Positions 11,108 to 62,107 of a DNA stretch of 64,000 nucleotides are shown here, in pieces. A model generated the notes under the pieces. It ran no database searches. It had not been told where the DNA came from and was given only the letters and a program-made list of their open reading frames with translations. Both the position numbers and the translations under genes were made by a program. The first letter of the stretch is position 1; every line of letters begins with the position of its first letter. The stretch covers positions 1 to 64,000 of the IMG/VR virus record IMGVR_UViG_3300020050_009224; one strand, given 5' to 3'. This stretch comes from a virus (lineage: Duplodnaviria; Caudoviricetes).

Positions 11108-14100
11108 TATTGTGGAACATAAATTGTTAGTACTCTTTCAAGATTAATAGTATTACCAGAAGAATTATCATAATACAAAGTTACTAAATGCCAATCATTT
11201 CTAACTCTAGAAATTTTATTAGCTTGTAAAATGTTTCTAGGTATTTTTTTAATCTTCCAAACATTAAATCTATTTCTTTGTCTGCTGGCTAAGCTTACTT
11301 TACCTGTGTCTTGATAATCATTCTGTATTCTAATATAAGTTAATCCTTCAGTACTTATGTAATTATTAGAAGCATCTTTGACTGATATATCATACTGTAT
11401 ACCCTTAATTACCTTAGTAACGAATGATAAGTCATTCACATAAAAACTTACACTAGATTCAGATACGGGTTTATCAAAAAATATACAATTAACTCCTTTG
11501 TTATACAAATAAATAGAATTCAAATTAGTTTGTACATCACTAGGACTAATTAAAAACTTTTTATTATCTATGTAAATATTAGGAGTAAAGTCTGGAAAGT
11601 CTCTGAAAGAATCCCACCTTGGATTATATACCAAAGTCGTTCTATTTTCATTTTCAAATTTTGCATCATTGCTTAAAGTAGTTATATATAATTCTTCATA
11701 TTTTGGATTATACCCAAGTATTACTCCAGCATTTTCTATAGGATTATCTCCACCTTCTTTTTTAGTCAGTAAGATATTACCTATTAAATTCTTAAAATAA
11801 GAATCCATTCCTTTTACAGTAGATAAATTTTCTGGCGTAGTACCATTTAATCTGTTAAAACATTGTCTGTTAGCATCATAGTAGTATAAAGTATTTGTAA
11901 ATACCCCAGAAGACCATTGGTGTATGCTACCAGAATTCTTACTAAGATACACATAATTTTGTAAACCTGTTGCAGTTCCTAATTCTGTAGGTACTCCATC
12001 TGAAGTAGTTGTGATAGCTCTGGGATTAATGCTTATGTAACCAACTCCATTTTCTTGTAAAAAGAATACTTCATCCATGTAAGAATGAGTTTCAGTAATA
12101 GGGCCTTGGTTAGCTTCCAGATCTAAAAAATTATTAGGTCTAAATTTAGCCCAGCTATCTACGGTTTCACCAATAATCTTAGGATCAGATAAATAATTTC
12201 TAACATCAAAAGTATTATTCTCTATAAAATCAAATGGTTTAGTCTGATAATACCTACTCATAAACTCTGAACTGAATACTGTATTGTAAGTAAACATCCC
12301 AGATTCTTGAGCTCTAAAGTGCTCACCTTCAAATTCTGCTCCTCTGGTAAAAGTTTTACCATGATTCAAATCTATATTTACAGTAGTTTCAATAGGTAGG
12401 ACTACAGCTTCATAAAAACTAGCATCGTCTAAACTATTGTCCCAAAAGTTTTTCATGAATTCAAACATACTTACATAAGTATCTCCACCAAATACTTCTT
12501 CAACTATAGTACCTGAAGCGTTAATAGAATTGGTAATAGATATAAAATTATTGTAAGATATGTTTTCAACACCTAATCCTCCATACTGATCTTGTTTTAA
12601 TTTAACAAAATCCATCATCATTACAGATCCATAGTAATTAGACCAAGGCCTACCTAGTACTCCTGATTGATAAGTAGATGGAGAACTGTCAAATAAGTCT
12701 ACATCCCCTGCATCCATTTTACAAATTAAACAAGTTCCATTGTAAGCACCTTTAGGTGTATCAGTATTGTTACCTGTATCAAAACTATAATTTCTATAAT
12801 CTAGTCCTTCTATTGCAAAAGGAACATCATTTCCAAAACTTGGATCTTGTCTTTGAAAGGCTTTTATTTTTTCCCAGTGAAATTCGTGATTATAATTTGT
12901 AGTAGGGTCAGTTACTCTACCTTTAGTTATAAACTCTCTATCTGTTCTAGGTAATCCACCTAATCCTGGAGAAGTAGATCCCCATCTTTGAGGGCCGTAA
13001 GGAGTTAATCCATTAGGATTCCACTTACCAGTATTAATTAAAATACCATTAGTTTTCAAATAAGTATTACCTGTAGACGCAGGAGATTCATGATTGTAAG
13101 TAACTTCAGGGCTAAAAAATCCTAGTAAATCTTTTCTATCAAATTCAGATTGTTTATTTTGCCATTGATAGGGAATATCAGATTGTGCACCAGAAGCATA
13201 ATATTGTTCTATATCATTAATATCTGACATAGCAAAATGTATACCTGTACCTGAAGCTCCTCCAGATTGTTCAAAAAATTTACTTATAACACCAGAACAA
13301 ATTCTAGTTTTATCCACAGAAGTTCTTGGGACTCTTACTATTTCAAAAGAATCTATGTCTATATTATCAGGAACTGTGATTGTAAATTCTAATCCAAGGC
13401 TCCATAACTTAACATTGTTATCTCCATCTACTGTTGAAATAGGAAAATAATCTATACCAGTTCCAGCTATAGTTTCATAACCTGCTGGTGTACTTAATTC
13501 TGGAGCTTTAATATCACCTATGTAACCTACAAAAGAATAGCTAGAACCTCGTCTTCCTACAATTCCATATCTATATACCTCTCCTCTTTTTAAACCTTTC
13601 AGATTTCTTGTAAATGGAGAATGGAAACTATTAAAACTAGGGTTAATTATAGTCTGACCATTAGTATTTTCTGTAGTAGTATCTCCGTTAGCTGTAAAAT
13701 AAGTTTGTTCAGAATCTGAATTATCTGAACCTATTTCTCTTAATACAAATTTATATTTAATACTTTGGTCTAAAGATTGTCCTCCTAATGTAACTCCATC
13801 AGGTTGAAACATGTACTGATCAGTACTCAACCAATCTGCATAAACTCCAGTAGGCCTATCTCCATAAGCTGTTCCTGTTTCATCATTAAAATAATTCTTA
13901 TAGGGCTCATGTCTGATAGCTAAAATTCCATCATACTTATATCTAAAACATTGAGTTTCCCATCCCATGTCAAAACTTTTGTTCTTAACATTGGATACAA
14001 CTAAACTATTATCTTTAATAGCAAAGCATTTGTTGGTATAAAAAGGATATTGGTTTATAAAGTAATCATCAAAATCTAATGTGCTAGAACTTAATTCGTT

Positions 14101-39383: not shown

Positions 39384-39396
39384 ATTTTAATTTTAG

Positions 39397-39470
<74 letters not shown>

Positions 39471-40441: not shown

Positions 40442-40710
40442 TGTTCTTTAAATTTTAGTTTTATATTAAAAGTATAAGTTCCACCATTAGTCATTTCATA
40501 AACTATCGTGTCTCCTTCTTCTGTTAAACTTTTAGTAGTATCCATAATAGAAGGAATTATTTTTCTAAAAATGCTACTTAAATCCATTCTATTTTGTAAG
40601 GCTTCTTCTTTTAATTCTCTAATAATGGTTTCTTCTATAATCATTCTAAGATCAGAATTTTTATCTAATACTTTAATAAATTCTAAAGCTTTATCTAATG
40701 GTATTATCAT
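40438..40710 (-). CDS. Hypothetical protein
   Basis: 90-aa ORF, ATGA-coupled to the next gene. Confidence 0.55.
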   Translation of the reverse strand: MIIPLDKALEFIKVLDKNSDLRMIIEETIIRELKEEALQNRMDLSSIFRKIIPSIMDTTKSLTEEGDTIVYEMTNGGTYTFNIKLKFKEQ

Positions 40711-41211: not shown

Positions 41212-42405
41212 CTATTTTCCATATGATTTCCCAGCATAGCTGAATTTATTATTTATACAAGTAATCTGTTCAACTTGAAAGTTTCCAATCTCATCTATAT
41301 TAACTAGAGCAAATCCATTTTGCCAGTTCATTTTTTCATATCTAGAAGCATAAGCAAATCCAGGAGAGTTAATATCACAAAGACATCCAATGTTAAAACT
41401 AGCTTGATCTCCTTCAAAATAAGAGCTAATTCTATGGCTATGTCCAAACATTGAAGAACATTTCATTCTAGTTAAGTGTTGCCTGCAAGGATTTACTCCT
41501 AAATAGAAGCCATGAATAATTTGAAGTTTGCCAAGTTGAACATAGTCTTCTTTCCAGTCTTCAAACACATTATAGCCTCTTTCTTCAAGTCTAAGCCCTT
41601 TGGTCGGGTTAGGTGTCACATCTGCAAAAACAGAGTTGTTAATGTCTTTGAAATGAGAAAAATATCGAGCTTCGTGGTTGCCGTATAAAAAATTCTTTTT
41701 ACAGTTCCCTTGTAGGGTGTCATCAAATAAATCTAACCATTGGTTACCTTGCTCATATTCAACGCCTAAGCTATATCCTTCCATTGGAACTTGATTCATT
41801 TCATGTTTAGATAAAGCTAACATATCTAGAAAATCTCCAAGAATTGTAAAACTTTTAATTTTACTGGAGTAATCTTCCATGAAGATTAGAATGTTAGTAA
41901 GAAGTTCAATATTTTCAAATGGTACGTGAACATCAGGTAAAACTAGGTGTAATCCTTGATCAAAAGATTTATAAGCGTCTTTTTGTTCTGATCCAATTTT
42001 ATATCCTTTGACAAAACTTTCTACACTATTTTCAGGAATTTCTTTAACATCAATAGCCAATACTGGTTTATTGAATTGATTTGGATAAAGTATTTGGTAT
42101 GTAAAAGACTGACAGTCAGTATTTGTAGTTAAAGTAGTTTTAGGCTGTGGTTCAAGAGGTAATACTTGATGAAAGTTAGTAGAATTGTATCCAAAAAAAG
42201 GCAAAGGCTTTAATTCTGCTTGATGTTTTGCTGCTTCTTTTAAAAAAGCTATTCCATCTTCTTTTAAATAGGCTGGATAATATTCTTCAACAGTCCTGCC
42301 AGATTTTCCTAAAAGTTTGCCAATTCTTTCGTAATATTGCTTTCTAGGTTCTTTTACCCGTATAGGGTTTGAGCTAAAAAAATTAAAGTAATCTTGTTTA
42401 TTCAT
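41212..42405 (-). CDS. Calcineurin-like metallophosphoesterase with N-terminal extension
   Basis: DxH (PDVH), GD (LGDFLD), GNHE, HG and GHSH motifs. Confidence 0.88.
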   Translation of the reverse strand: MNKQDYFNFFSSNPIRVKEPRKQYYERIGKLLGKSGRTVEEYYPAYLKEDGIAFLKEAAKHQAELKPLPFFGYNSTNFHQVLPLEPQPKTTLTTNTDCQSFTYQILYPNQFNKPVLAIDVKEIPENSVESFVKGYKIGSEQKDAYKSFDQGLHLVLPDVHVPFENIELLTNILIFMEDYSSKIKSFTILGDFLDMLALSKHEMNQVPMEGYSLGVEYEQGNQWLDLFDDTLQGNCKKNFLYGNHEARYFSHFKDINNSVFADVTPNPTKGLRLEERGYNVFEDWKEDYVQLGKLQIIHGFYLGVNPCRQHLTRMKCSSMFGHSHRISSYFEGDQASFNIGCLCDINSPGFAYASRYEKMNWQNGFALVNIDEIGNFQVEQITCINNKFSYAGKSYGK

Positions 42406-42435
42406 GGGTCAAATATATGGCAAAAAACTAAGAGT

Positions 42436-42816
42436 ATGGGAGAATTAACAATTTATCAAGAAAAATTAACAGATTTTGTATATATCCTGTTTGGGTTTAA
42501 CACTCCTGTAGAACAGTACGTTGGTATGGTTGAATTTCCTAATACAGATAGAGGCTGGAAATATCATTCACTTTTTGTAGATTTTTGCTTTGATTACAAC
42601 ATAGGTATTAAAAAAGGAGATTACGAGAACTGGTTAGAAATCAATTCTATACGAACTAAAAATTATGAACTCTTTCGAAATTATTCTGGTTATGTAGTAA
42701 AAGATTTACAGGGGTATGAAGTTTTAATAGGCTCTTTAGAAGAAGTAGCAAGACAAATTGTAAACATAGAAAATCCTAATAGACGTGGAAAGAAAACTAG
42801 TAAAAAAAATCCTTGA
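42436..42816 (+). CDS. Hypothetical protein
   Basis: Probable ATG start MGELTIYQ; part of a two-gene plus-strand island. Confidence 0.5.
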   Translation: MGELTIYQEKLTDFVYILFGFNTPVEQYVGMVEFPNTDRGWKYHSLFVDFCFDYNIGIKKGDYENWLEINSIRTKNYELFRNYSGYVVKDLQGYEVLIGSLEEVARQIVNIENPNRRGKKTSKKNP

Positions 42817-43165
42817 TTGGTGTATAGAATTTTATGGATCTTCGGATTTTGAAAAGAGGCCTATAAAACTCAGAACCTACAAAAAAAAGGATGTAAATTT
42901 AAGAGGTCAGTATAATTCTGGTACTGCTACCATGCTTATTTTCATAGGCTCTCATGATACTATCATAGATCTTATAAGTACTGTGATACATGAGTATACA
43001 CATTATTTACAACCTATTATTACAGCCTATGACGATTTGACTAAATACTTTGGTTTAAAAGAACACCCTTTAGAGAGAGATGCAAATACTATTGCTATTA
43101 GAGATAGATGGATTTGCTATAAGCATTTAAAACTAGAAGATCCTAGCCTAAAGAGTCAAGGATAA
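42785..43165 (+). CDS. HExxH zinc metallopeptidase-like protein
   Basis: LRGQY...TVIHEYTHYLQ...HPLERDA. Confidence 0.75.
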   Translation: MERKLVKKILDWCIEFYGSSDFEKRPIKLRTYKKKDVNLRGQYNSGTATMLIFIGSHDTIIDLISTVIHEYTHYLQPIITAYDDLTKYFGLKEHPLERDANTIAIRDRWICYKHLKLEDPSLKSQG

Positions 43166-43571
43166 GCTTAAGTCTGTTTAAACTAAGGTTAAATACTTCT
43201 TCATTTTTAAACCGAATTATATTTTTAAAGCCTAAGTCAGTTAGTACCTCAGTTCTAATCTGATCTTTAGCTAAACCTTCTTCAGTATAATGTTGAGAGC
43301 CATCTAATTCTATAACTAGATGATAATCAGGTAGATAAAAATCTACTATCCAAAACCTACCCTTGTCATAAATCACATACTGTGTCTCGTATTTAATCTC
43401 TAATCTATTTAGGTAGTAGCAAAATATATCTTCGGCCGTTGTACTAACCCAGTTTAAACTAGTTTGATACTTTTTACTAAGTGATATTAATTTAGGATAC
43501 CTGTGGTTTATATACCTTTGATACCTTAAGCACTCTTCTGTATTTGATATTTTCTCTTTGAGTTTTGGCAT
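43143..43571 (-). CDS. DUF559/Vsr-like endonuclease
   Basis: IVDFYLPDYHLVIELDGSQH...D..R...L...G...IRF.NEEV; likely ATG 43571 with TATATTTG at 43585-43592. Confidence 0.85.
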   Translation of the reverse strand: MPKLKEKISNTEECLRYQRYINHRYPKLISLSKKYQTSLNWVSTTAEDIFCYYLNRLEIKYETQYVIYDKGRFWIVDFYLPDYHLVIELDGSQHYTEEGLAKDQIRTEVLTDLGFKNIIRFKNEEVFNLSLNRLKLILDSLG

Positions 43572-43644
43572 TATAATTAAAATACAAATATATACTATAT
43601 TCCAGAACAAGTCTGGAAGAGTTTTATTTAGGAGGCGGTGCTAT

Positions 43645-45122: not shown

Positions 45123-45225
45123 GACTGTAACTAAAGAGAGGGTTGCCGCCACCATCTCACTTTAAGCTAGAAAGAGAGATATAGGATAGTAATCAAATAC
45201 TGTCCTATTCTCTTTAGTTATAGTC
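45123..45225 (+). ncRNA. Four-way-junction structured RNA
   Basis: 17-bp closing stem with one G.U pair, enclosing three hairpins. Confidence 0.6.
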
Positions 45226-45357
45226 TTTTAAGTTTATAATTGTTTAAACTGTTTAATTATTCAATTGATAAATTGATAAATTGTTATATTGTTAAATGAT
45301 TATAACTCTTATCAACTCTAATCAACATTTCAACAACTAAACTAATCACCAAAAATC

Positions 45358-45552
45358 ATGAAAACAGCTTACATATGCTTAATATGGTTACTCATAGTAA
45401 TACTATCACTTTCAATCCAGCCTATGATAAATGCTGGATTGCATCCTAATCTTACATTCTTATATGTATTAATTGGGCTTTGTTCTTTACTTGCTTGTCT
45501 TATTACTTGGATATTTATATCTACTGATAGTAAGGTAAATTCAAAAACTTAA
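45358..45552 (+). CDS. Small two-TM membrane protein
   Basis: 64 aa, hydrophobic. Confidence 0.55.
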   Translation: MKTAYICLIWLLIVILSLSIQPMINAGLHPNLTFLYVLIGLCSLLACLITWIFISTDSKVNSKT

Positions 45553-45706
45553 CTCTTTCCAAGATGTTGAGGACACCAGTTTCTTTGATTAAGGACACAG
45601 TATCTCATTATGTTAAAAAACAGATGATACGGCTGCATAAGACTTATTTGCTCTAACGAGAATACATTTAAGTAATAATTAATCAAAGTTTTAGGTGTAA
45701 AACACA
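45548..45706 (+). ncRNA. Repeated structured RNA motif A, copy 1
   Basis: CTTAACTCTTTCCAAGATGTTGAGGACACCAGTTTCTTTG-[variable]-CAAAGTTTTAGGTGTAAAACACA. Confidence 0.75.
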
Positions 45707-46014
45707 GTTGCAAAATTAAACTAATGCAACAAATAGTAGGTACTTGTCCTACAAATCATTTAGCTGTAGGCATATAGCTATCTAAAATAACATCAGTAAT
45801 TACTTCTACTGTTGTTAGATTATTATTCAAGACTATAAGCATCAATTAAGGTGTGTGATAGTGATTGTCTTATTATTATGTAACAAAAATTAATTGCTGA
45901 AGGATTAACTCAAAATGTAGTAAATATGAGTTAGTAGATAGGCGTTTGTTATCCTTGCATTGGGAAACATCCTATAAAAATTGCCGTTATTCTTATACCG
46001 TTATTATAAGAACT

Positions 46015-46146
46015 TAAACAACAACACAGAATGTACAGATTAGAACTCTCAATTCTAATTAACTGAAAACACCTTGAGAAAGTGTGAATAGGTTCTACAA
46101 TTAATTAAGGCTTATAACCATTAATTGTAGTATGTGTTGTTGTTTA
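46015..46146 (+). ncRNA. Multi-stem RNA with kissing loops
   Basis: 14-bp perfect closing stem; loops CUCUCAA and CUUGAGAAA share 6-bp complementarity. Confidence 0.6.
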
Positions 46147-46219
46147 TTTTACTAATGCAGCTATTGTAGTAATACAATAAGAGTCCAAAGCCTCTATAAA
46201 TGCAGATGGGTAAAATAGA
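46143..46219 (+). ncRNA. Twister ribozyme (P1 type)
   Basis: P1 UAUUUUAC/GUAAAAUA; UAA; P2 UGCA/UGCA; GC; P3 AUUGUA-GUAA-UACAAU; P4 AGAG-UCCAAAGC-CUCU; AUAAA; GAUGG. Pseudoknots T1 (CCA/UGG) and T2 (GC/GC) are intact. Confidence 0.9.
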
Positions 46220-46289
46220 GTAAACTATTCAAATCAGGTGTTCAACACTACCTATAATAAAGTGTGTTGTAAAACAAAAATTTAAAACA

Positions 46290-46472
46290 ATGTCAGAAAA
46301 AGAGTTTGACTTTCATGTAGATAATAAAATTAGTCAATTAATGAAAGCAGTAGCAGATTATCAAAATAATCCTGATAAAGCTAAAGATTATATTTTTACC
46401 ACAGTAAAAAACATAGTTAAATCTTCAAAGGAATTTGGTAAAATGACTGTTGCAGAAGAATTATTTGGTTAG
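46290..46472 (+). CDS. Hypothetical protein
   Basis: 60 aa, A-rich leader. Confidence 0.55.
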   Translation: MSEKEFDFHVDNKISQLMKAVADYQNNPDKAKDYIFTTVKNIVKSSKEFGKMTVAEELFG

Positions 46473-46558
46473 TTTATTAGTTGTAGGTAATCTATAAACC
46501 TTCATTTTTTTCATTCACTTAACAACCACTGGCAAGTTGTAATAATATGTAAAATAAA

Positions 46559-46798
46559 ATGGAACAAGAAATTACATTTGAATCACACCCTATTTCTTTT
46601 ATTCAACAACTTGAACAAGAAATAGAAGATAACCACCCTTCAAGATTAACATCAGAAGATATTGAAGATGTATCTGATAATTATCAAGCACATTTAGAAT
46701 ATAAATGGTGGAAAGATGAACAATCTGAATTAATTAAAGATTTAAAATCTCAGCTTACAAAAGAGCAATTAGAACTTTATAATCAACTTAATTCATAA
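46559..46798 (+). CDS. Hypothetical acidic protein
   Basis: 79 aa, A-rich leader. Confidence 0.6.
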   Translation: MEQEITFESHPISFIQQLEQEIEDNHPSRLTSEDIEDVSDNYQAHLEYKWWKDEQSELIKDLKSQLTKEQLELYNQLNS

Positions 46799-46847
46799 AA
46801 CATTTGAGTTTAGGGGAGATTGTATCAAACCTGAACTTATTAAAAAA

Positions 46848-46987
46848 CTTAAATAACTTTCCAAGTTGTTGAGGACACTAAGTTTCTTTGATAATAAGTG
46901 TGAAGAATCACTTTCAGGATTAAGCAGACCCAACTTTATAGTTAGCGGAGCTAAATGTATTTATCAAAGTTTTTAGTGTAAAACACA
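46848..46987 (+). ncRNA. Structured RNA motif A, copy 2
   Basis: Same ends as copy 1 with compensatory changes (AACUU-UCC-AAGUU; ACACUA/UAGUGU). Confidence 0.75.
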
Positions 46988-47524
46988 GATTCTGTATATA
47001 TCTGTTTTTTATCAAAGAAAAGAAAACTCTTTTAGAAACAAATTAGTCTCAACACAATGAGAGCCTTAAACAAACACTTGACTCTTCAGGTGATTATGAA
47101 GGTAAGTAGGGTTATTTGTTTATCCTACTAAATTTAAAGACTGGTAAACCAGCAGAATGTGGATGTTTCTGTATTATAACTCCACCTAATTGAGTTTTCT
47201 TTTTCTTCTTTCTAAACACAAACCAATAAACAAACTAAAGCTATGTACACAGGACACAAACTTACTCTTATCAACATACAATGTAGATGTAAGAGGATTA
47301 CACAATTTGTACAATTACCTACATATAATGGTAAAGCTGTACTTCATCAATCAACAAAAGAAAAAAGTAAGACAAAAAAGAATTCCTTTGTCCTGGTGGC
47401 TACTACCTTTAGAGTAGTATAAGTAGCTACTAGTATAAATACTGCTAAGTTACTACATTTTTTCCACATATTTGTCATAATACTATCATTTATTTTACAC
47501 CTGTTTAACCAAATAACTAAACTA

Positions 47525-47680
47525 ATGGCTAAATTTTTAATTTTTGTACTTCTTATCTGTTTTATTACCTCAAGTTGTTCCACATCTAAAGGTTATAACT
47601 ATAAAGCCCATCATGCTAAATCTATAAAATATAAACATAACAATGAGCATGGTAAATATATGAAATGTAAAAAACACTAA
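47525..47680 (+). CDS. Small lipoprotein (51 aa, not in ORF track)
   Basis: MAKFLIFVLLICFITSS-C lipobox; His/Lys-rich mature part. Confidence 0.55.
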   Translation: MAKFLIFVLLICFITSSCSTSKGYNYKAHHAKSIKYKHNNEHGKYMKCKKH

Positions 47681-47820
47681 AATCCCAAAACTTATGTACC
47701 AATATCTTACCACATTTGACTATGAATCAGAAGCTGAAAGAATGGACAATTCCATTTTATCTCTTAGTTCTTTAAGAACAATTGTAAATTCATTTATAAT
47801 GCCTTAAATACTCTAAAAAG

Positions 47821-48006
47821 ATGAATGAAATATCTTATTCTAAAGATTCTAAAGCTGAAAAAATGCTTAAAAAAGCAATGAAAGTAGTAGATGATTATCT
47901 AAATGCTGGATTTAAAGAAGAACGAACATTAGCTCATAACAAAGCTAAAAAACTTTATAAGGAATATTATGGAGTTGAATACAAGAATAGAGAAGAAAGG
48001 AGGTAA
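47821..48006 (+). CDS. Hypothetical protein
   Basis: 61-aa ORF. Confidence 0.55.
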   Translation: MNEISYSKDSKAEKMLKKAMKVVDDYLNAGFKEERTLAHNKAKKLYKEYYGVEYKNREERR

Positions 48007-48089
48007 ACATGCCTAAATACGACTATTCAGTTCAAGTATTAGAATCTATATATGATTATGTAGATTCATTCTTTGATTAATAAAAAAAA

Positions 48090-48191
48090 CTTAACTCTTT
48101 CCAAGATGTTGAGGACACCTAGTTCTTTGTAGCAACGCTCATGCTGTAAGTACATTAGTACTAAGTGAACAAAGTTTTGGTGTAAAACACA
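48090..48191 (+). ncRNA. Structured RNA motif A, copy 3
   Basis: Same conserved ends; shortest variable insert. Confidence 0.75.
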
Positions 48192-48421
48192 AAAAAAAGA
48201 ATAATGTACTAGAGATTCTTTCAAATTATCATCTAGGAGAATAAGTCTTTAAGGATTGTAATAATCTCAATAAAAATCAATTCTTTAACAAAAAAAGCCA
48301 GCTATGAGTGAGATCATAGTAATTTGATAGAACAGTAGAGACTTACGAAAAACGCAAGGAGGCTGTTCATTTTGCTATTCATAACCAATTCAATAACTAA
48401 AGCTGCTCACATATCAGTTAT

Positions 48422-48664
48422 ATGTGCAAAAACATGTCTTATACAACACCTTCTCCAAATCCAGAATCAAGAATTACTGTATTTGATTTTTATACAGATA
48501 ATTTTACAACACTAGATGCAGATTGCACTAAAGCTGTAGGTTATCAAGTTAAACCAAATGATATTTGGTCAATAAATATAAGAGAACATGAACTCAGAAG
48601 ATTACATGTAACCTTGACTATTATTTATTGGAGTCTTGAATCAGTTGCAAAAAGAAATTCATAA
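48422..48664 (+). CDS. Hypothetical protein
   Basis: 80-aa ORF (second Met may be the true start). Confidence 0.5.
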   Translation: MCKNMSYTTPSPNPESRITVFDFYTDNFTTLDADCTKAVGYQVKPNDIWSINIREHELRRLHVTLTIIYWSLESVAKRNS

Positions 48665-48700
48665 ACTTTGGTTAGCCTGCGATAACATCAACGGCTAACT

Positions 48701-49100
48701 ATTTTAACTTAAAAGTGCAGTATTTGATAGGCATATCGTAATACGAAATTGACTGAACAATACCTTTCTACAGAATAGGGTATAAAGTATAATTAAGCTG
48801 TGATGGCTATTATTCCTTAAATGAGGATATAGTACTCTGTGAAGAGTTAATTAATTGAACTGAAAAAACACAAATTATACATATTGTGTGATTTTACATG
48901 GACCATAAGGTGTGATAATAACGCCTGATCCTAAATATTATGTTGAGCTTAAAAAGAAGCTCAATTAGAATGTAGTAGTAATACTATGACTAAGCTCCTC
49001 AAGCCAATATTATGTGTAATCTTATCAAAGGTAGGAATACCAATAACAGTTCATAGAGGTAATGTATAATCCTCTATTTCAAGCACTTTTAATTTAAAAT
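48701..49100 (+). ncRNA. Large (~400 nt) ornate RNA candidate
   Basis: 17/18-bp closing stem, many internal hairpins, long-range pairings, no listed ORF. Confidence 0.6.
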
Positions 49101-49131
49101 AAAAACACAATAACTCTAAATAATAAAACCA

Positions 49132-49341
49132 ATGAAAGTATTTCAGTATTTCTTCATGCTATTTACAGCAGCCCTAATTTGCTTATTAACTCATTGTATT
49201 GGATATGGATTTTTAAGCAATAAAGTCTTAAATTACAATGATATCTCATTTATGGGATGGATTGGAACAATAATCTGGTATGGATTTATATTTTCTGCTG
49301 CACATGTAATGTATATGCAATACCTTGAAGAAAATAAATAA
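49132..49341 (+). CDS. Small two-TM membrane protein
   Basis: 69 aa, hydrophobic. Confidence 0.55.
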   Translation: MKVFQYFFMLFTAALICLLTHCIGYGFLSNKVLNYNDISFMGWIGTIIWYGFIFSAAHVMYMQYLEENK

Positions 49342-49520
49342 TTTTTAACGTGCTTTTTCGACACCGAAATGGTGTAAAGTAACCCAATATCTGATTATAA
49401 CTTATAATATGAGTTTAAGAAACTTTGTACCAGTAATAGCTGGAGTAATACAATATGTATTCGTAAGTCTTAGCAGTGAGGGTTATTTTTAATTCACTAA
49501 AACTATAAAACTATGAAACT

Positions 49521-49670
49521 ATGAAAATACCAACTTATGGATATTTATGCACATGTAGTAATTGTGGATGTGCATTAACAGCTAAAGTTACAATTAATCT
49601 ATATCTTGGTTCAGGTTACTATTGTAGTAATTGTAAATCAAATGTAGATAAAGAATTATATGGTAAATAA
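49521..49670 (+). CDS. Small zinc-ribbon protein (49 aa, not in ORF track)
   Basis: CSNC...CSNC. Confidence 0.55.
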   Translation: MKIPTYGYLCTCSNCGCALTAKVTINLYLGSGYYCSNCKSNVDKELYGK

Positions 49671-50118
49671 CAGATCCTTCGTACATAAAGTATTCACTAT
49701 TTTTCCCAATAGATGCGCAAATGGGTTTTTAGTGTTTAGTGAGTATATATTAATAGTAGAATGTCATCACCCTCTGTAGTGGAGGAAGAATTCAAGCTTA
49801 TTATTAGTAAGAGTCTCACACTGTTGGATCTTAAAAATGATTAATTATCAATTACCGAAAGTGGGGATTAAAATACACGGGTAATTAGTCATTTTCATTA
49901 TTCTTATTATAAGGAGAGTATTCGTAAATGATGCTTTCGTGTCTGTATTGGGGAAGCTGTGTGAAGATGCACAGCTCTCCTTATAATATGAATTATTATT
50001 CTACAAATAAAGAGATTTAATCTCATACTAAATAGTTAGAGATTTAGCTAGTATTGTTAGTTACTCGAATAATTAAATGTAATTCGAGCATTTACTAGCT
50101 AATCTCTTTATTTATAGA

Positions 50119-50204
50119 TATTTCCTCCTATGGATAGCCCAGCATAGGCTCTCCTATATTCATACTTTATAGTATTAGTATAGGGGAGAGAAGGAATACT
50201 GGGC
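50119..50204 (+). ncRNA. Three-way junction with loop-to-3'-tail pseudoknot
   Basis: Stems UUCCU/AGGAA, CCUAUG/CAUAGG and CUCUCCUAUA/UAUAGGGGAG; loop GCCCAG pairs with tail CUGGGC. Confidence 0.6.
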
Positions 50205-50310
50205 CTAATGTACCACAACTCATTTCCCAAGGATGAACAATTGTAATAATGCTAGGAATAGATTAGTATACATAAATACTAAGAGGATTACAATTGAGTA
50301 CAGAGGGTTT
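50201..50310 (+). ncRNA. Variant twister-like ribozyme with P5 insertion
   Basis: UAA-UGUA-CC...UCAU-UUCCCAAGG-AUGA-A-[CAAUUGUAAU...AUUACAAUUG]-AG-UACA-GAGGG; P1 is weak. Confidence 0.55.
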
Positions 50311-50744
50311 AAAACAAAACTGGAGCTTTCTAGCTAATCTTTTGAATGTCTTTGATAGTTTAACTACCTCAAAGTTTTAGCTCTAAACTATTATTAAATC
50401 CTTCTCAACTGAGTAATTGTTTTTATTAAACAAATTGCGTTGACATTCTAAACAGTTTTAAAATTTAATCTAGGAACTGTAAAGGGCAGCTCACCAAAAG
50501 TTTAAAACAAGAAGAGATTTGATTCATCTCCTAGATTATTTAATAACAACTAATACTTAAAAAACATGATGCCAGAACTAACACCTAGCTTTTTAAATCA
50601 CTTAAGGTATTTACCTATAGTGTGGAATGCAACTCCTAAATCTTGTAAAATGGATAAAAGAATAGGATGTAGAATACAACCATTAGACATTGATACATTG
50701 ATTTATGGAGTAGATTCAGTAATCTTTTTAAACTAGTTAAAACT

Positions 50745-51089
50745 ATGATTAAATTTAAAAAAATAATAGCAAAAGAAAACAACTTCATTTATAGATTTAA
50801 TCTTTACCTTAAAAAAGGCTCTATCAAATTACATTTAATATGTAGCGATGATACAAGAGAACCTCATAATCATCCTTGGGATTTTAAGAGCTTAATATTG
50901 TTTGGAGGTTACAAAGAGTTTAATGAAAAAGGAGTACAAACTAATTTTAGATTTTTATCTGTAAATAAAAAAGATACTTCTGTTTTTCATAGATTGGAGT
51001 TGTACAAACTATTGGGTATTAAAATACCTTGTTTAACCATTGGTAGATATTCAGAAAAAAAACAAACTTTTACATTCTTTAAAACTTAA
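50745..51089 (+). CDS. Cupin-like protein
   Basis: LH...SDD.REPHNHPWDF.SLIL.GGY.E...FHRL. Confidence 0.7.
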   Translation: MIKFKKIIAKENNFIYRFNLYLKKGSIKLHLICSDDTREPHNHPWDFKSLILFGGYKEFNEKGVQTNFRFLSVNKKDTSVFHRLELYKLLGIKIPCLTIGRYSEKKQTFTFFKT

Positions 51090-51092
51090 ACT

Positions 51093-51413
51093 ATGGCTGA
51101 AAGAAGAATAAAAAAAGATATTACATATATAGATCCAAGTAAAAAAGGAGCTTTATTATTATCTAAAAACAGAAAAATACAACTAACAAGACTTAAGCCT
51201 AAAAATGCTGATGATGGATTTAATATTCTTATTAGATCAACTTTGGGTGATGTAACAAAACCAGCTGTTGAGCACAAAGTTTTAAAAGGTAAGGTTAGAC
51301 AGTCACAAATTACTATTTCTTCAGAAGCAATGGCAGAAATTGTTAATATGTATCACATACTTACAGAAAAATCTGATTCAATTACATTAACTTGGAAAGA
51401 AAAACAATCTTAA
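51093..51413 (+). CDS. Hypothetical protein
   Basis: 106-aa ORF. Confidence 0.65.
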   Translation: MAERRIKKDITYIDPSKKGALLLSKNRKIQLTRLKPKNADDGFNILIRSTLGDVTKPAVEHKVLKGKVRQSQITISSEAMAEIVNMYHILTEKSDSITLTWKEKQS

Positions 51414-51426
51414 AACAAATAAACAA

Positions 51427-51591
51427 ATGGAAGAATTAATTGAAACTCCTTCAAAGAATAAACTTTTCAAAATTAGAAAAGGATATTCTAAGACAATGCA
51501 CAATCTTATGAAAAAATACAATGTAAAAACTGTAGAAGAGTATCGTAAAATCAGAAAAGCAAACAGAAAAAAATTAAGAAGCGACCTGTAG
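51427..51591 (+). CDS. Small basic protein (54 aa, not in ORF track)
   Basis: MEELIETPSKNKLFKIRKG...; A-rich leader; hairpin at 51625-51648 downstream. Confidence 0.55.
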   Translation: MEELIETPSKNKLFKIRKGYSKTMHNLMKKYNVKTVEEYRKIRKANRKKLRSDL

Positions 51592-51788
51592 TTAGGACAG
51601 GTTTTTGGTTTAGGTTTAGTGACTTAGGGTAGGAAACGTTCTACCCTTTGTTTTAGATTTAAGATATGAATAATTTCATAAATAAAAGAGAGCCAATCTA
51701 ACCACATTTGTAGTGGAGAAAAGGATGAATTTGTAAATGACCAAGTATCTTGAATCTAAAACAATTGTTTAATTAAATCTTTAAAAAC

Positions 51789-51965
51789 ATGAAACTAACA
51801 ATTTTAATCTTATCTGTTATTTGTATTGCAATTTGTATACATGCTAATTATATCCAAACTCAATACAGAAAACAAAATTTACAATTAATCCATGTTGTAA
51901 ATAGACAAAAGAACAAAATTTGGATGTATGAGCATTGTTACACAATAACATGTAAACAAAAATAA
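51789..51965 (+). CDS. Small membrane-anchored protein, paralogue 1 (not in ORF track)
   Basis: MKLTILILSVICIAICIHANY...WMYEHCYTITCKQK, clearly similar to 53208..53396. Confidence 0.75.
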   Translation: MKLTILILSVICIAICIHANYIQTQYRKQNLQLIHVVNRQKNKIWMYEHCYTITCKQK

Positions 51966-52007
51966 CAAGTGACCCAAGAGGATTAATTCCACAATGTAAA
52001 CTTGTTT

Positions 52008-52853
52008 AAAGAATAACTCAATATATGATTATAACTTACTTAATACCAAGAATAATTACTAGATGTTTGGTGTTGTAACACATTAATCTTACACCTATTA
52101 GGTAATTTGCATTGAGAGTTATTCTTTCTTTTATTTAGTATAGAGAAATACTCAAGAACCCTATACTGTCTGTTATTGCAACATCTATAGAATGACTAAG
52201 AAATCTTGTGTCTCTGTACTAAATAAAAGTAATTTAAAAACTTAAAATCACTTGCTTGAAGATAAACAATAACGTATGAATTGGTAGATAGGTAAGGTTC
52301 GATTCCTGTAAATTGTCCCTATTATTGTTATAAACTGTACTAGCAGTTGTGTTTATTGTAAAGATATTATTGAAAAATGAGTTTGCGAGTGTTAATTCAT
52401 GGCGCGATTATTAAAATGATATAGTATTCCACTAGAATTTGGACAAGTGATTTTATTAATGCACCATCTCATGTAGATATAATCGACTTCTTAGTGTCTC
52501 TTAGAGATAAAGAACTTGCTAAGCTGATTGGAGTAATCCATGTAATATTGGAGCTAGTCTAACCTAAAGGGTAGAGAATTGTAAAGCATACTTGAAAATA
52601 CATTGCATTGCATAAAATATGGTTCGAGTCCAGGAGGTCATGTTGTAAACAGCATGGCATCCAATAGGGTAGGTGGGTGCCCAATGTATATAATCTAAGT
52701 AAAGTATGTGGTGGCAGCTAAGTGTTAAACTGTAGGATTAATTACCTATGTATGCGGGAACTTAGCCTCAACAATAGTAATATTGTTGTAGTAGTTGTTA
52801 AGTTGATAAAGGAATAAGTCATGTATGAACTCCTCAAATAACAACATTGTGCA
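52008..52853 (+). ncRNA. Block of four abutting structured RNA domains (52008-52127, 52128-52229, 52243-52455, 52460-52853)
   Basis: Each has its own closing stem (12, 19, 12 and 5 bp); two tRNA-type T-loop hairpins at 52295-52307 and 52620-52632; no listed ORFs. Confidence 0.6.
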
Positions 52854-53207
52854 GACTGGAGTGATTACCAGTAACAAAAAATTAAAAATTATGAATTGGA
52901 ATAGTGATTGGACTAAAAATTTTCCTGTAACTTTAGGGATAGGAATTAGTTTAGGAATATTAATTGGAGTATTATTATGTATTAATTTATTTCAATTATA
53001 TTAAAGAACTTTTAGTATATAAGACAGACTTTATACAGATAAAATACAAGTACCTAAAGGTTTAAAGAGGGAACTTATGTTGTTAGACAGTTTAAAAACA
53101 GAATGTGACAGTATTGAAAAAACTGGAAGGATGTCACAATAACAAAGTGATTAAGGTTGAACACGCTTGTATTTTTATTAAATATTAACTTTAAAAACAA
53201 AAAAAAC

Positions 53208-53396
53208 ATGAAACTAACAATTTTAATCTTATCAATTATTTGTATTGCAGTTTGTGTACATGCTAATTATGTGCAAGAAAGATACAAAAAACAAAATCTT
53301 GCTCTTATCTATGCTTTTAATCGTCAAAGAAATAAAGTATGGATGTATGAACACTGTTACAAGATTACTTGTAAAGATAATGTAAAAACTAACTAA
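53208..53396 (+). CDS. Small membrane-anchored protein, paralogue 2
   Basis: ATG 53208 inferred from alignment with paralogue 1. Confidence 0.75.
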   Translation: MKLTILILSIICIAVCVHANYVQERYKKQNLALIYAFNRQRNKVWMYEHCYKITCKDNVKTN

Positions 53397-53398
53397 GT

Positions 53399-53659
53399 AT
53401 GTATTTCTACTTATTTCTAACCTTAGTTATGATAATATGGAATATTTATCAAGTTAATCCTTGTTTATTTTCATTACATGCTAAATATCTATATTTCTTT
53501 AATGGTAAACACAATATCTATAAATGCCATCTGTGTACTAATTATAAAAGTACTAGGACACCAAAAACAATGTATGGTAATTTAAAGGTAAATCAAAAAT
53601 ATCATAAAACTTTGGTAACACAGAGTTTTAAATTCATAAAATCTACTTATCTTTTTTAA
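53399..53659 (+). CDS. Hypothetical protein
   Basis: 86 aa; C...H...CxxC pattern. Confidence 0.45.
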   Translation: MYFYLFLTLVMIIWNIYQVNPCLFSLHAKYLYFFNGKHNIYKCHLCTNYKSTRTPKTMYGNLKVNQKYHKTLVTQSFKFIKSTYLF

Positions 53660-53839
53660 ACCATTCCTTTGTATAGTTGTAATAACAGTGACGGTGCTGG
53701 AATAAATATTAGCTGACCTTAATTTAAAGACCAGTAATGGTGTGCCATAAGAGAAATCTCACTAATCAAAGGAATCACCGATGTATATATGGTATTGGGA
53801 CTAACTATAAACTATGTAAATACCTGTGATTTATAATAG

Positions 53840-54136
53840 ATGTTAGAATATTTATTTATTACAACTTACATTGGAATTAAAAACTTAAATAATATGAAGA
53901 TAGGAGATAAACTCATTGATCTTGATAATTCTTTTATAGAATATGTCAAATTATACAATAAAGACATTGAAAAAGAAGAGAATAAAATGCTTATTGTAAA
54001 AAGAGAAGATTGTATTATTAAGGATATAATCAATGATTCTATTCAAGTTTATATAAGTAAATGCACAAATCATGGTATAAATTGTTTACAATGGTTCAGA
54101 ATAGAAAATTTTAATAAAAGATTCAAACTTAAATGA
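53840..54136 (+). CDS. Hypothetical protein (likely start MKIGDKL)
   Basis: ORF; SH3/KOW-like KIGD start. Confidence 0.55.
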   Translation: MLEYLFITTYIGIKNLNNMKIGDKLIDLDNSFIEYVKLYNKDIEKEENKMLIVKREDCIIKDIINDSIQVYISKCTNHGINCLQWFRIENFNKRFKLK

Positions 54137-54314
54137 TAAAGGTAAATCAAAGTTAAAAAACAAAAAGAAAGTTTTATGTGTAGAAGATAATCAAATATTT
54201 GATTCTTTAACACAAGCTTCTGAACATTACAATATTTCAATAACCACTATATCTAACATATTACATGGAAAAAGTAAAAAAGCAAGGAATGGAAAGTCTT
54301 TTCGTTTCTTATGA
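54105..54314 (+). pseudogene. Start-less NUMOD1-like DNA-binding domain remnant
   Basis: KKVLCVEDNQIFDSLTQASEHYNISITTISNILHGKSKKARNGKSFRFL*; no ATG after the upstream TAG. Confidence 0.6.
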
Positions 54315-54741
54315 GTTGGCTTTATTAGCTAAAGAAAAAGGATTTGATGAGCCTTGTTTTGCTGCTTGGTTTAAATATACAATACTAAATGATAAAAAGA
54401 TTGAATTAACTAAGCCAAAAGATAGTATTTATGGTGAAAATTTTCTTTTTAAAAATTCATTAGAAATATTTATAGATAATAGTATAAGTGGTAAAGGAGA
54501 TGGAGCTAAATGTTCAGCACCTCTTTATCAACAATTAGTTGATTGGTTTAGAGAAAAACATAAACTATATATCGAAGTTTCTTGGATTACAACAAATGAT
54601 GAAATAAATCATAAAGTTAATTTTTGGTATATGATAACTAAAGAAGATGTTTTAGAATTTGATTTAGAATCTCCAAAAGAATTTGACTCATATTATGAAG
54701 CTCTAAACAAAGCATTAACTGAAGCATTTAAACTAATTTAA
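54289..54741 (+). CDS. Conserved-type Bacteroidota phage protein
   Basis: VSYELALLAKEKGFDEPC...SAPLYQQLVDWFREKH...YYEAL..AL..AFKLI; probable start MESLF. Confidence 0.65.
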   Translation: MESLFVSYELALLAKEKGFDEPCFAAWFKYTILNDKKIELTKPKDSIYGENFLFKNSLEIFIDNSISGKGDGAKCSAPLYQQLVDWFREKHKLYIEVSWITTNDEINHKVNFWYMITKEDVLEFDLESPKEFDSYYEALNKALTEAFKLI

Positions 54742-54742
54742 C

Positions 54743-54991
54743 ATGGAACCAAAAAATTTAGAAAAATTAGCAGTATTAATGGGATTATCTTTTAAAGAAA
54801 AAAGTAATTTTCCTGATATGTTAGCTAAAGGAACAAGAGTATTTGATGGAATAAATGGGCAAAGATTTTTAATTGAGTCCTCTTGGTCCGATGATAAAAT
54901 ATATCAAGAATTAGGCAAAGCTCTTATTTCTATCGGTAAAAGACAAAAATGTATGGAAATTAATAAAATTTTATCAATAACCTCTGATTAA
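54743..54991 (+). CDS. Hypothetical protein
   Basis: 82-aa coupled ORF. Confidence 0.6.
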   Translation: MEPKNLEKLAVLMGLSFKEKSNFPDMLAKGTRVFDGINGQRFLIESSWSDDKIYQELGKALISIGKRQKCMEINKILSITSD

Positions 54992-61932: not shown

Positions 61933-61937
61933 AAGTA

Positions 61938-62082
61938 TAAATAATAAGATTTTTAGTAATTCGATAACCAAAAGAGGGTAAGAATGAGTTTTTTCACGAC
62001 AACAGACTAGGATATAAGTTTGTATCAAAGAACAAATGGGACTTTAAAAAAGGTTTTAACGCATAAAAAATCTTATTATTTA
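61938..62082 (+). ncRNA. Intergenic structured RNA candidate
   Basis: 17-bp perfect closing stem TAAATAATAAGATTTTT/AAAAATCTTATTATTTA. Confidence 0.45.
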
Positions 62083-62107
62083 TTTTAAACTTAAATTTTA
62101 TTAAATT

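Follow-up and report, generated by a model that had tools for sequence, protein, structure and literature searches.

We asked what fills the gaps between the small genes with which the + strand block of an uncultivated virus (record IMGVR_UViG_3300020050_009224) begins. The whole stretch of DNA analysed, hereafter the window, covers positions 1–64,000 of this 98,184-bp record. Large structural genes occupy its − strand from 1 to 42.4 kb, and from ~44 kb on the genes are small and lie on the + strand. At 45–54 kb, the gaps between plausible + strand open reading frames (ORFs) total 4.6 of 9.0 kb (~51% non-coding), and reading TAG or TGA as sense opened no long frames in them. An initial annotation had described this region as low in coding density and as a tandem array of more than 15 structured + strand RNAs, interleaved with small ORFs and carrying embedded twister ribozymes. 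The low coding density and the interleaved arrangement both stand. We find that this RNA island holds five predicted twister-class ribozymes in three architectures, all on the + strand and placed to cut a long transcript, as the annotation had supposed, together with conserved RNA modules and stem-closed units of graded support.

One of the five is a canonical twister that Rfam recognises by itself, and homology and covariation identified the four further twister-class elements. A permissive scan against Rfam yielded a full-length match to the type-P1 model RF03160 at 46149–46213 on the + strand (57.5 bits, E 3e-10). In the model alignment, the P1, P2 and P4 helices, the T1 pseudoknot and the cleavage-site UAA are all present, and T1 is kept by compensatory change, with CCA in L4 offset by UGG in the 3′ strand. 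Homologues of this twister occur in L008, L040 and L112, three of the loci fetched for comparison (numbered with an L throughout). Shared by all five elements are a UAA cleavage site between P1 and P2, the L4 motif CCNAAG, GAGGN after P2 and a covarying T1; the predicted cut in the canonical copy falls between U46153 and A46154. Permissive Rfam scans of the region found no hammerhead, hatchet, pistol, twister-sister or HDV ribozyme, and no group I intron, Y RNA, GOLLD or ROOL.

Three of the further elements belong to one family, which we call motif A. Copy 1 (45540–45707, +) carries an ~86-nt insert in P1 and scores 85.4 bits (E 1e-18) with our covariance model (CM) R1; its predicted cut lies between U45698 and A45699. 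Copy 2 (46841–46988, +; 82.5 bits; predicted cut between U46979 and A46980) has a P1 of CACU/AGUG that is compensatory relative to the other copies, and copy 3 (48081–48192, +; 85.5 bits; predicted cut between U48183 and A48184) has a short insert. From 5′ to 3′ the element runs through an A-rich leader, UCCAAG, one nucleotide, UGUU, GAGGA, CACC and an internal loop, then through a covarying stem with an insert of 25–220 nt, and ends in GGUG, UAA and AACA. By its sequence this order of parts is the type-P3 twister permutation, in which L4 is followed by the P2 3′ strand, GAGGN, the P1 3′ strand, the P1 5′ strand, UAA and the P2 5′ strand. The three copies coincide with units 45548, 46848 and 48090 of the initial annotation, whose "branched cores" turn out to be cargo in P1. 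Unit 50201, discussed below, is likewise a ribozyme with an insert in a variable stem, so the cores of these four units cannot be counted as independent RNAs.

The family extends well beyond this phage, to more than 120 contigs of phage origin. A scan of IMG/VR with the 3′ 16-mer of motif A returned at least 120 rows, some of them chance matches in coding sequence, and its conserved 21-mer is found in 49 IMG/VR contigs. Across 90 distinct copies, the top mutual-information column pair is a T1 pair (U-A 63, C-G 26, U.G 1); the second T1 pair is C-G in 81 and G-C in 7, and the variable P2 pair is U-A in 83 and C-G in 6. In a MAFFT alignment of 36 motif A sequences (A1), which includes window copy 3, T1, P2 and P1 are 100% paired, compensatory changes occur in all three T1 pairs, and the covariation score was reached by none of 500 shuffles. 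A CM of the nested helices scores the window copies at 82–85 bits, against at most 16 bits elsewhere in the 64 kb, and also finds a copy with a P1 of CAGC/GCUG in L194, a locus fetched by protein search and not by the motif. We also considered motif A as a virion-RNA-polymerase promoter with an N4-like hairpin; this candidate was rejected, as a variable insert of 25–220 nt lies inside covarying stems and the pseudoknot pairs covary.

The fifth element, motif C (50198–50315, +; unit 50201–50310 of the annotation), is a predicted type-P1 twister with a long P5 stem-loop, identified from covariation and homologues, with its predicted cut between U50206 and A50207. It opens with UAA, UGCA and CC, continues with a P4 hairpin whose loop is UUCCCAAGG and with a stem of 10 bp that carries a variable insert, and closes with UGCA and GAGGG. 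Seventeen distinct copies were collected. In an alignment of 13 sequences, 92% of cells are paired (P2 100%, T2 100%, P5 98%, T1 97%, P4 95%), and again none of 500 shuffles reached the covariation score. P2 covaries between UGCA/UGCA and UGUA/UACA, with C-G replaced by U-A in three sequences, and T1 between CCC/GGG and CCA/UGG, while T2 is CC/GG; P1 also covaries and is paired in 65% of cells across the family. Because the twister cores lie on one strand and show compensatory changes that include pseudoknot pairs, which are relevant only in RNA, we place them at the RNA level.

Several observations adjoin these two families. In L112, at ~1553–2189 on the − strand, a type-P1 twister, a motif C, an insert-bearing motif C and a motif A follow one another in tandem within ~650 nt, directly upstream of a gene. 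Within the window, 52458–52536 (+) is similar to the 5′ half of those motif C twisters that carry an insert. Its matches in L102 and L112 begin alike and go on into a complete motif C; the window segment is possibly a motif C remnant. Just after motif C, 50330–50400 resembles the 3′ part of motif A (CUUUGAU…UCAAAGUUUUAGCUCUAAAC) and has no 5′ core, and it may be a degenerate motif A copy. A hairpin-forming segment just upstream of motif A copy 2 (46795–46841) is kept in L007, L019, L020 and L049. On wastewater contigs (runs X9–X11 and X1), the insert of motif A copy 1 (45586–45685) is replaced, or the 5′ half of copy 2 is joined to the 3′ half of copy 1 (46878 to 45685); such joints suggest strain variants that arose from insert exchange or from recombination between motif A copies.

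How would five ribozymes act on one strand? We hold it somewhat probable, from the arrangement of the predicted elements, that one or a few long + strand transcripts are cut by them into defined mRNAs and stable RNAs, each cut leaving a 2′,3′-cyclic phosphate upstream and a 5′-OH downstream. Arranged like a type-P3 twister, motif A would cut near its own 3′ end, so that the ribozyme and its P1 cargo would stay on the upstream fragment and the downstream RNA would start with a short unstructured A-rich leader (AAAACACA...). The type-P1 elements would cut near their 5′ ends, trimming the 3′ ends of the RNAs before them to a cyclic phosphate, and motif A copy 1 and the canonical twister would thus release a 455-nt RNA. 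The same layout of motif A, cargo and type-P1 twister recurs with unrelated cargo in L008 (492 nt between cuts) and L040 (208 nt). In 53 of the 90 motif A copies, an ORF of at least 40 amino acids starts 11–57 nt downstream; where an ORF follows this closely, as in other phages, cleavage would give the message a short A-rich leader. The stem-closed units that are not ribozymes would probably be stable structured RNAs or end-protecting structures on the fragments, as would modules D and E, described below. The sequence, covarying structure, strand and recurrence of the ribozyme cores are observed. That they cleave in vivo, that the transcript is a single long one and that stability or translation is affected in any way we infer, as we do the early timing, by position and by analogy with phage phi14:2.

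Two modules of the island recur in other phages as units. Motif D (52243–52455, +) has homologues in L017, L025, L042, L092, L154 and L194, in which the ends and core are conserved and the inserts vary; its 42-nt core matches phi14:2 (L153) at 1362–1403. The window insert, with a D-loop and a T-loop, is similar to the upper half of a tRNA, and so is the L092 insert. ARAGORN and Rfam called no tRNA or transfer-messenger RNA (tmRNA) in 52243–52853, where T-loop motifs at 52296 and 52621 lie within variable inserts. Motif E (52537–52874, +) is a large conserved structured RNA that follows motif D both in the window and in L154. Its blocks are colinear in a Leptolyngbya cyanophage (L001), where they are 93–100% identical, and in relatives on six IMG/VR contigs (L154–L159). 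Its structure is supported by helices between distant segments, by a hairpin capped with GUAA and by covariation in a 3′ hairpin. As a group I intron, motif E gave no Rfam match (E up to 10 in the window, up to 1 in the six loci) with a model that misses subgroups, and it interrupts no gene; a giant twister closed by UGCA/UGCA was rejected, since the relatives lack the 5′ half. In L155 (2737–3774, − strand) the order is tmRNA, tRNA, motif E, tRNA, and in L154 a pistol ribozyme that exceeds the gathering score (57.9 bits) lies with tRNAs at 11783–12409, ~2.3–2.9 kb downstream of motif E.

Further conserved blocks complete this part of the island. Upstream of ORF 53209–53396, non-coding blocks at 53041–53213 (+), absent from the initial annotation, are 87–93% identical to Leptolyngbya phage Lbo-JY46 (L001, 3571–3616 and 3720–3795). 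This ORF and ORF 51789–51965 encode small paralogues (62 and 58 amino acids) with an N-terminal hydrophobic segment and 79% DNA identity; both are preceded by non-coding modules, and we therefore take part of the island to be duplicated. Family B consists of two paralogous units, 49376–49489 (+; z −2.95) and 52008–52127 (+; z −2.4), with a conserved internal loop between covarying helices. Compared by eye, their compensatory changes are UAACCC/GGGUUA against UAACUC/GAGUUA and CUG/CAG against AUG/CAU; no homologue of family B was found in the 1.4 Mb of fetched loci.

To what extent are the other units more than chance folds? For the 18 units of the initial annotation, taken at their annotated boundaries, we computed folding z-scores against dinucleotide shuffles on each strand. 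Seven units reach z −4.9 to −7.6 on the + strand, most others −2 to −3, and the weakest are 48090, 52460 and 53663 (−0.9 to −1.7). The strongest is a three-way unit at 45123–45225 (+), closed by an 18-bp stem that includes G.U on the + strand (energy −43.1 against a shuffle mean of −19.2; z −7.6, − strand −5.1). A second three-way unit (46015–46146, +), directly upstream of the canonical twister, has a 14-bp closing stem (z −5.7 on the + and −5.6 on the − strand), and a 400-nt multi-branched domain (48701–49100, +; z −6.4) is closed by ~17 bp, with z −4.9 for the wider interval 48665–49131. Three hairpin-type units abut at 49905–49988, 50000–50118 and 50119–50204 (+; z −4.9, −6.0 and −3.1). 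Stem-closed units at 51648–51764 (+; z −5.9, − strand −3.9) and 52128–52229 (+; z −5.2) have closing stems of 20 bp, with two U.G pairs on the + strand, and 19 bp, and 53663–53775 (+; z −1.7) is a weak candidate. A homologue search found none for 45123–45225, 46015–46146, 48701–49100 or 53663–53775.

Since the unit boundaries had been picked on their closing stems, we ran controls. Uninterrupted stems of 10–14 bp (G.U allowed, strands 40–420 nt apart) are equally frequent in shuffled sequence and in the genome. Stems of at least 16 bp are enriched, with 8 in the genome against 1–6 in shuffles, and three of the eight (45123, 51648 and 52128) fall in this 9-kb region, 9% of the genome. An unregistered 120-nt sliding scan gave a mild enrichment, with z below −3 in 8.6% of windows against 3–4% in control regions. 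The long-stemmed units thus go beyond chance, and stems of 9–12 bp prove nothing by themselves. Energies of the + strand are lower in 16 of the 18 units and + strand z-scores in ~12, so the argument from G.U pairs on the + strand is valid for most units and fails for 50000–50118, which folds more strongly on the − strand (z −8.7), and for 46015–46146. Of the array as annotated, ~14 of the 18 units are backed by folding energy (z −5 to −8) or homologues and one is weak; the runs of abutting units (49905 to 50310 and 52008 to 52853) are as described. The annotation's further proposals, of discrete self-contained RNAs, RNase III processing and a decoy or anti-defence role, are conjectural. Covariation supports motifs A and C; most other units have no homologue, and the searches described below turned up no close relatives in which covariation might be followed unit by unit.

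Contigs from three wastewater RNA libraries offer a further view; being contigs rather than reads, they cannot show RNA ends or rank expression, and DNA may be present in the libraries. They cover 45685–46108, 46562–46878, 48878–49114 (within the 400-nt domain and its flank), 50219–50511 and 52537–52874, among others, at contig depths, not usable for ranking, of up to 257–365 at 48876–49114 and 87–121 at 52537–52874. Intervals covered by the DNA run and uncovered in the RNA libraries, such as 42000–43600, 49476–50009 and 53214–54815, are not evidence of silence. Two RNA libraries from two studies (X9 and X10) each contain a contig in which 52874 runs back into 52537; the 22 nt at the joint match the 5′ block of motif E relatives. 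Of these contigs, one is 390 nt long, a 360-nt cycle plus a 30-nt end overlap. The joint is not in the DNA run, and in IMG/VR DNA its sequence met with no more than two matches, both by chance and in coding DNA. A 360-nt cycle of this kind would be expected from a circular RNA and also from a tandem copy in a relative.

A number of points weigh against transcript cutting by five twisters. The canonical match scores below the gathering score of 67.2, and the window copy of motif C has almost no P1. Motif A has no demonstrable P4 helix: where twisters have P4 plus UAAA, its L4 joins P2 through a single nucleotide with no UAAA linker. P2 and T1 would face competition from an alternative hairpin at the 5′ end (CUYAAY/GUUGAG); this hairpin is also the sole P4 candidate, overlaps both P2 and T1, shows no real compensatory change and is missing from five copies with a different 5′ leader (L066, L086, L109, L115 and L147). 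T2 in motif A comes to at most one invariant pair, between the G of AAG and the C after P2, with no variation among copies. Searched at E up to 10, the Rfam twister models gave no motif A match in the window or in the short-insert copies of L048 and L049, and they did not report motif C. For the three window copies of motif A, the next ORF of at least 40 amino acids is more than 200 nt away or was not found. Most other units have no homologue, so that their function is argued from energy, short stems occur at chance level, and units 50000–50118 and 46015–46146 fold at least as well on the − strand.

The elements might instead be purely cis-acting, with ribozymes as insulators that give mRNAs clean A-rich 5′ ends and stem-closed units as 3′-end stabilisers, RNase III sites or terminators, and with no RNA effectors. 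Most motif A copies in other phages do lie 11–57 nt upstream of a start codon, several units come straight after ORF stops (for example the hairpin 48671–48699), and the 18–20 bp closing stems of three units are near the RNase III length requirement. In phage T7 early mRNA, the RNase III sites are long hairpins between the cistrons of a polycistronic RNA; the island shares such inter-cistron hairpins, with the difference that its stems close branched cores of 55–400 nt. Yet other phages keep D and E each as a unit, with E lying between tRNA genes and beside a tmRNA gene where no mRNA is present, the 400-nt domain and the P1 cargo inserts exceed what end protection needs, and the window copies of motif A stand far from the next ORF. 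This account, which is not exclusive of transcript cutting into stable RNAs, strikes us as possible, at a clear minority weight.

A DNA-level explanation, in which the island is a mosaic of inverted repeats or miniature inverted-repeat transposable elements (MITEs) with recombination hot spots and no RNA function, draws on the shuffling of modules among unrelated phages, on short cyanophage blocks of 87–100% identity, and on the contigs that join one motif A copy to another and suggest recombination. Two units fold better on the − strand, and short inverted repeats are at chance level. Five twister cores on one strand with compensatory changes down to the pseudoknot pairs speak against it, as do the G.U pairs that the longest stems hold on the + strand. 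Unlike MITEs, each stem-closed unit, motif A and family B aside, is single-copy in the region and in the genome. We consider an explanation at the DNA level very improbable.

The bracket layout raises the further question of circular RNAs, which host RtcB could form by joining the RNAs bracketed by motif A and type-P1 twisters, with motif E likewise giving a circle of ~360 nt. The engineered Tornado principle is published (PMC11263348) and has the same layout, a 3′-end-cutting twister upstream and a type-P1 twister downstream of the cargo, with RtcB-compatible ends. The layout recurs here with different cargo (455, 492 and 208 nt), the joint from 52874 to 52537 occurs in the RNA-library contigs and was not found as a tandem E–E junction in IMG/VR DNA, and RtcB is present in a Bacteroides control genome. 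Unlike the engineered Tornado, the island has no stem that brings the ends together: in none of the three bracketed fragments does one end pair with the other. Motif E has no recognisable ribozyme at either end, a tandem duplication in a relative would yield the same contig, and contigs cannot prove circularity. The phage genome has no RtcB or Rnl2-type ligase; it gave no match to T4 Rnl1-type ligase either, a family for which the control was likewise empty. We regard such circles as improbable. Bolder still, and in our judgement a long shot, motif A might be a new minimal P4-less type-P3 twister subclass, widespread in uncultivated phages, that, with type-P1 brackets, frames exchangeable cargo circularised via RtcB as the natural counterpart of Tornado; E, perhaps D, might be new circle-forming classes, as suggested by the 360-nt cycle confined to the RNA libraries.

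Transcript cutting by the five predicted ribozymes remains our preferred reading, and it has to be set in the context of the phage that carries them. Judged by its proteins, this is an uncultivated, distant crAss-like phage, an assignment that follows from PHROG profiles, which recognise a portal, a large terminase and a major head protein, and from a capsid protein ~24% identical to its counterparts in gut crAss-like phages and Cellulophaga phages. The window has a G+C content of ~30%, and near-identical sequence is present in wastewater metagenomes. Megablast against phage records for close relatives gave one short mosaic match only, protein-anchored searches of IMG/VR and JGI metagenomes found distant loci and no close relatives, and four ~97-kb contigs that bear motif A have nothing else in common with this phage. 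A scan of genome contigs placed motif A in contigs of metagenome-assembled genomes of many phyla only; we read these as mis-binned phage DNA, which hence carries no host information.

Other features of the window touch the island less directly. At gathering thresholds, its single Rfam match is a tRNA, and tRNA-Met at 39396–39470 is the sole tRNA called by ARAGORN or Rfam. A conserved box at 46516–46564 (…ACTGGCAAGTTGTAATAATATG…) runs up to the start codon of ORF 46559–46798 and has ~90% identical copies upstream of genes in L019, L035, L093, L105 and L112; the box has the look of a promoter or leader. More stem-closed units lie beyond the island, at 61937–62083 (18-bp stem, 111-nt loop) and 40547–40638 (15-bp stem, 62-nt loop).

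How does the island compare with what is known? The initial annotation knew of no described system of this density and diversity, which was too strong: self-cleaving ribozymes cluster together and near phage genes, with processing of polycistronic transcripts proposed (PMC6765202, PMC10085705), and phi14:2 makes abundant early non-coding RNAs (10.1101/2020.03.07.982082). As in the phage ribozyme arrays (Weinberg et al. 2015 via PMC6765202, PMC10085705), several ribozymes lie within a few kb on one strand among small phage genes, with uncharacterised conserved RNA motifs alongside. Unlike in those arrays, the twister class alone is recognisable here, and no described motif accounts for the greater part of the non-coding sequence. 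Like the island, the g004–g006 intergenic regions of phi14:2 are long non-coding stretches set between small genes where the rightward (+) block begins; in contrast to the island, phi14:2 has no motif A by CM search and has a tmRNA gene in one non-coding region, and timing was measured in phi14:2 only. That tmRNA gene lies in the g005–g006 intergenic region (L153, NC_021806, 4031–4500; ARAGORN tag peptide GSSVQKLAMVA; RF00023 at 46 bits and E 7e-16, narrowly below the gathering score), which was reported as an abundant early "long non-coding RNA" in a 2020 preprint that ran ARAGORN and makes no mention of a phi14:2 tmRNA (10.1101/2020.03.07.982082).

Twisters are described in types P1, P3 and P5 (Rfam clan CL00120; Roth et al. 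2014 via PMC6765202, PMC10085705) and tolerate imperfections of structure as well as auxiliary P0, P3 and P5 stems (PMC11662667); when additional permutations were looked for in 2023, none came to light (PMC10085705). Motif C shares P4, T2 and an auxiliary P5 with them. Motif A departs from them, beyond the differences in P4, its linker and T2 given above, in an extended P1, which has a conserved internal loop and carries 25–220 nt of cargo, and in a conserved 5′ leader rich in A; it is not in Rfam 15, and no description of this form turned up in the papers searched. Arrays of ribozymes in phage operons are already known, as are RNA islands where the early region of crAss-like phages begins. 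The novelty lies in a permuted twister family that is compact and has no P4, in the link of this family to start codons, in the bracket layout that recurs between phages, and in modules D and E.

The biological role of self-cleaving ribozymes in bacteria and phages is an open question (PMC6765202), for which this locus is a compact test bed, with three twister architectures on one putative transcript and a layout of ribozyme, cargo and ribozyme that recurs. Modules D and E enlarge the growing set of unclassified RNAs in the RNA islands of crAss-like phages. Motif A, a large uncatalogued family, tends to sit directly ahead of start codons, and this points to a concrete part in the shaping of mRNA 5′ ends. 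If motif A is active, a twister can work without P4, which would widen the known tolerance of the fold (PMC11662667) and would explain why model-based searches miss such copies.

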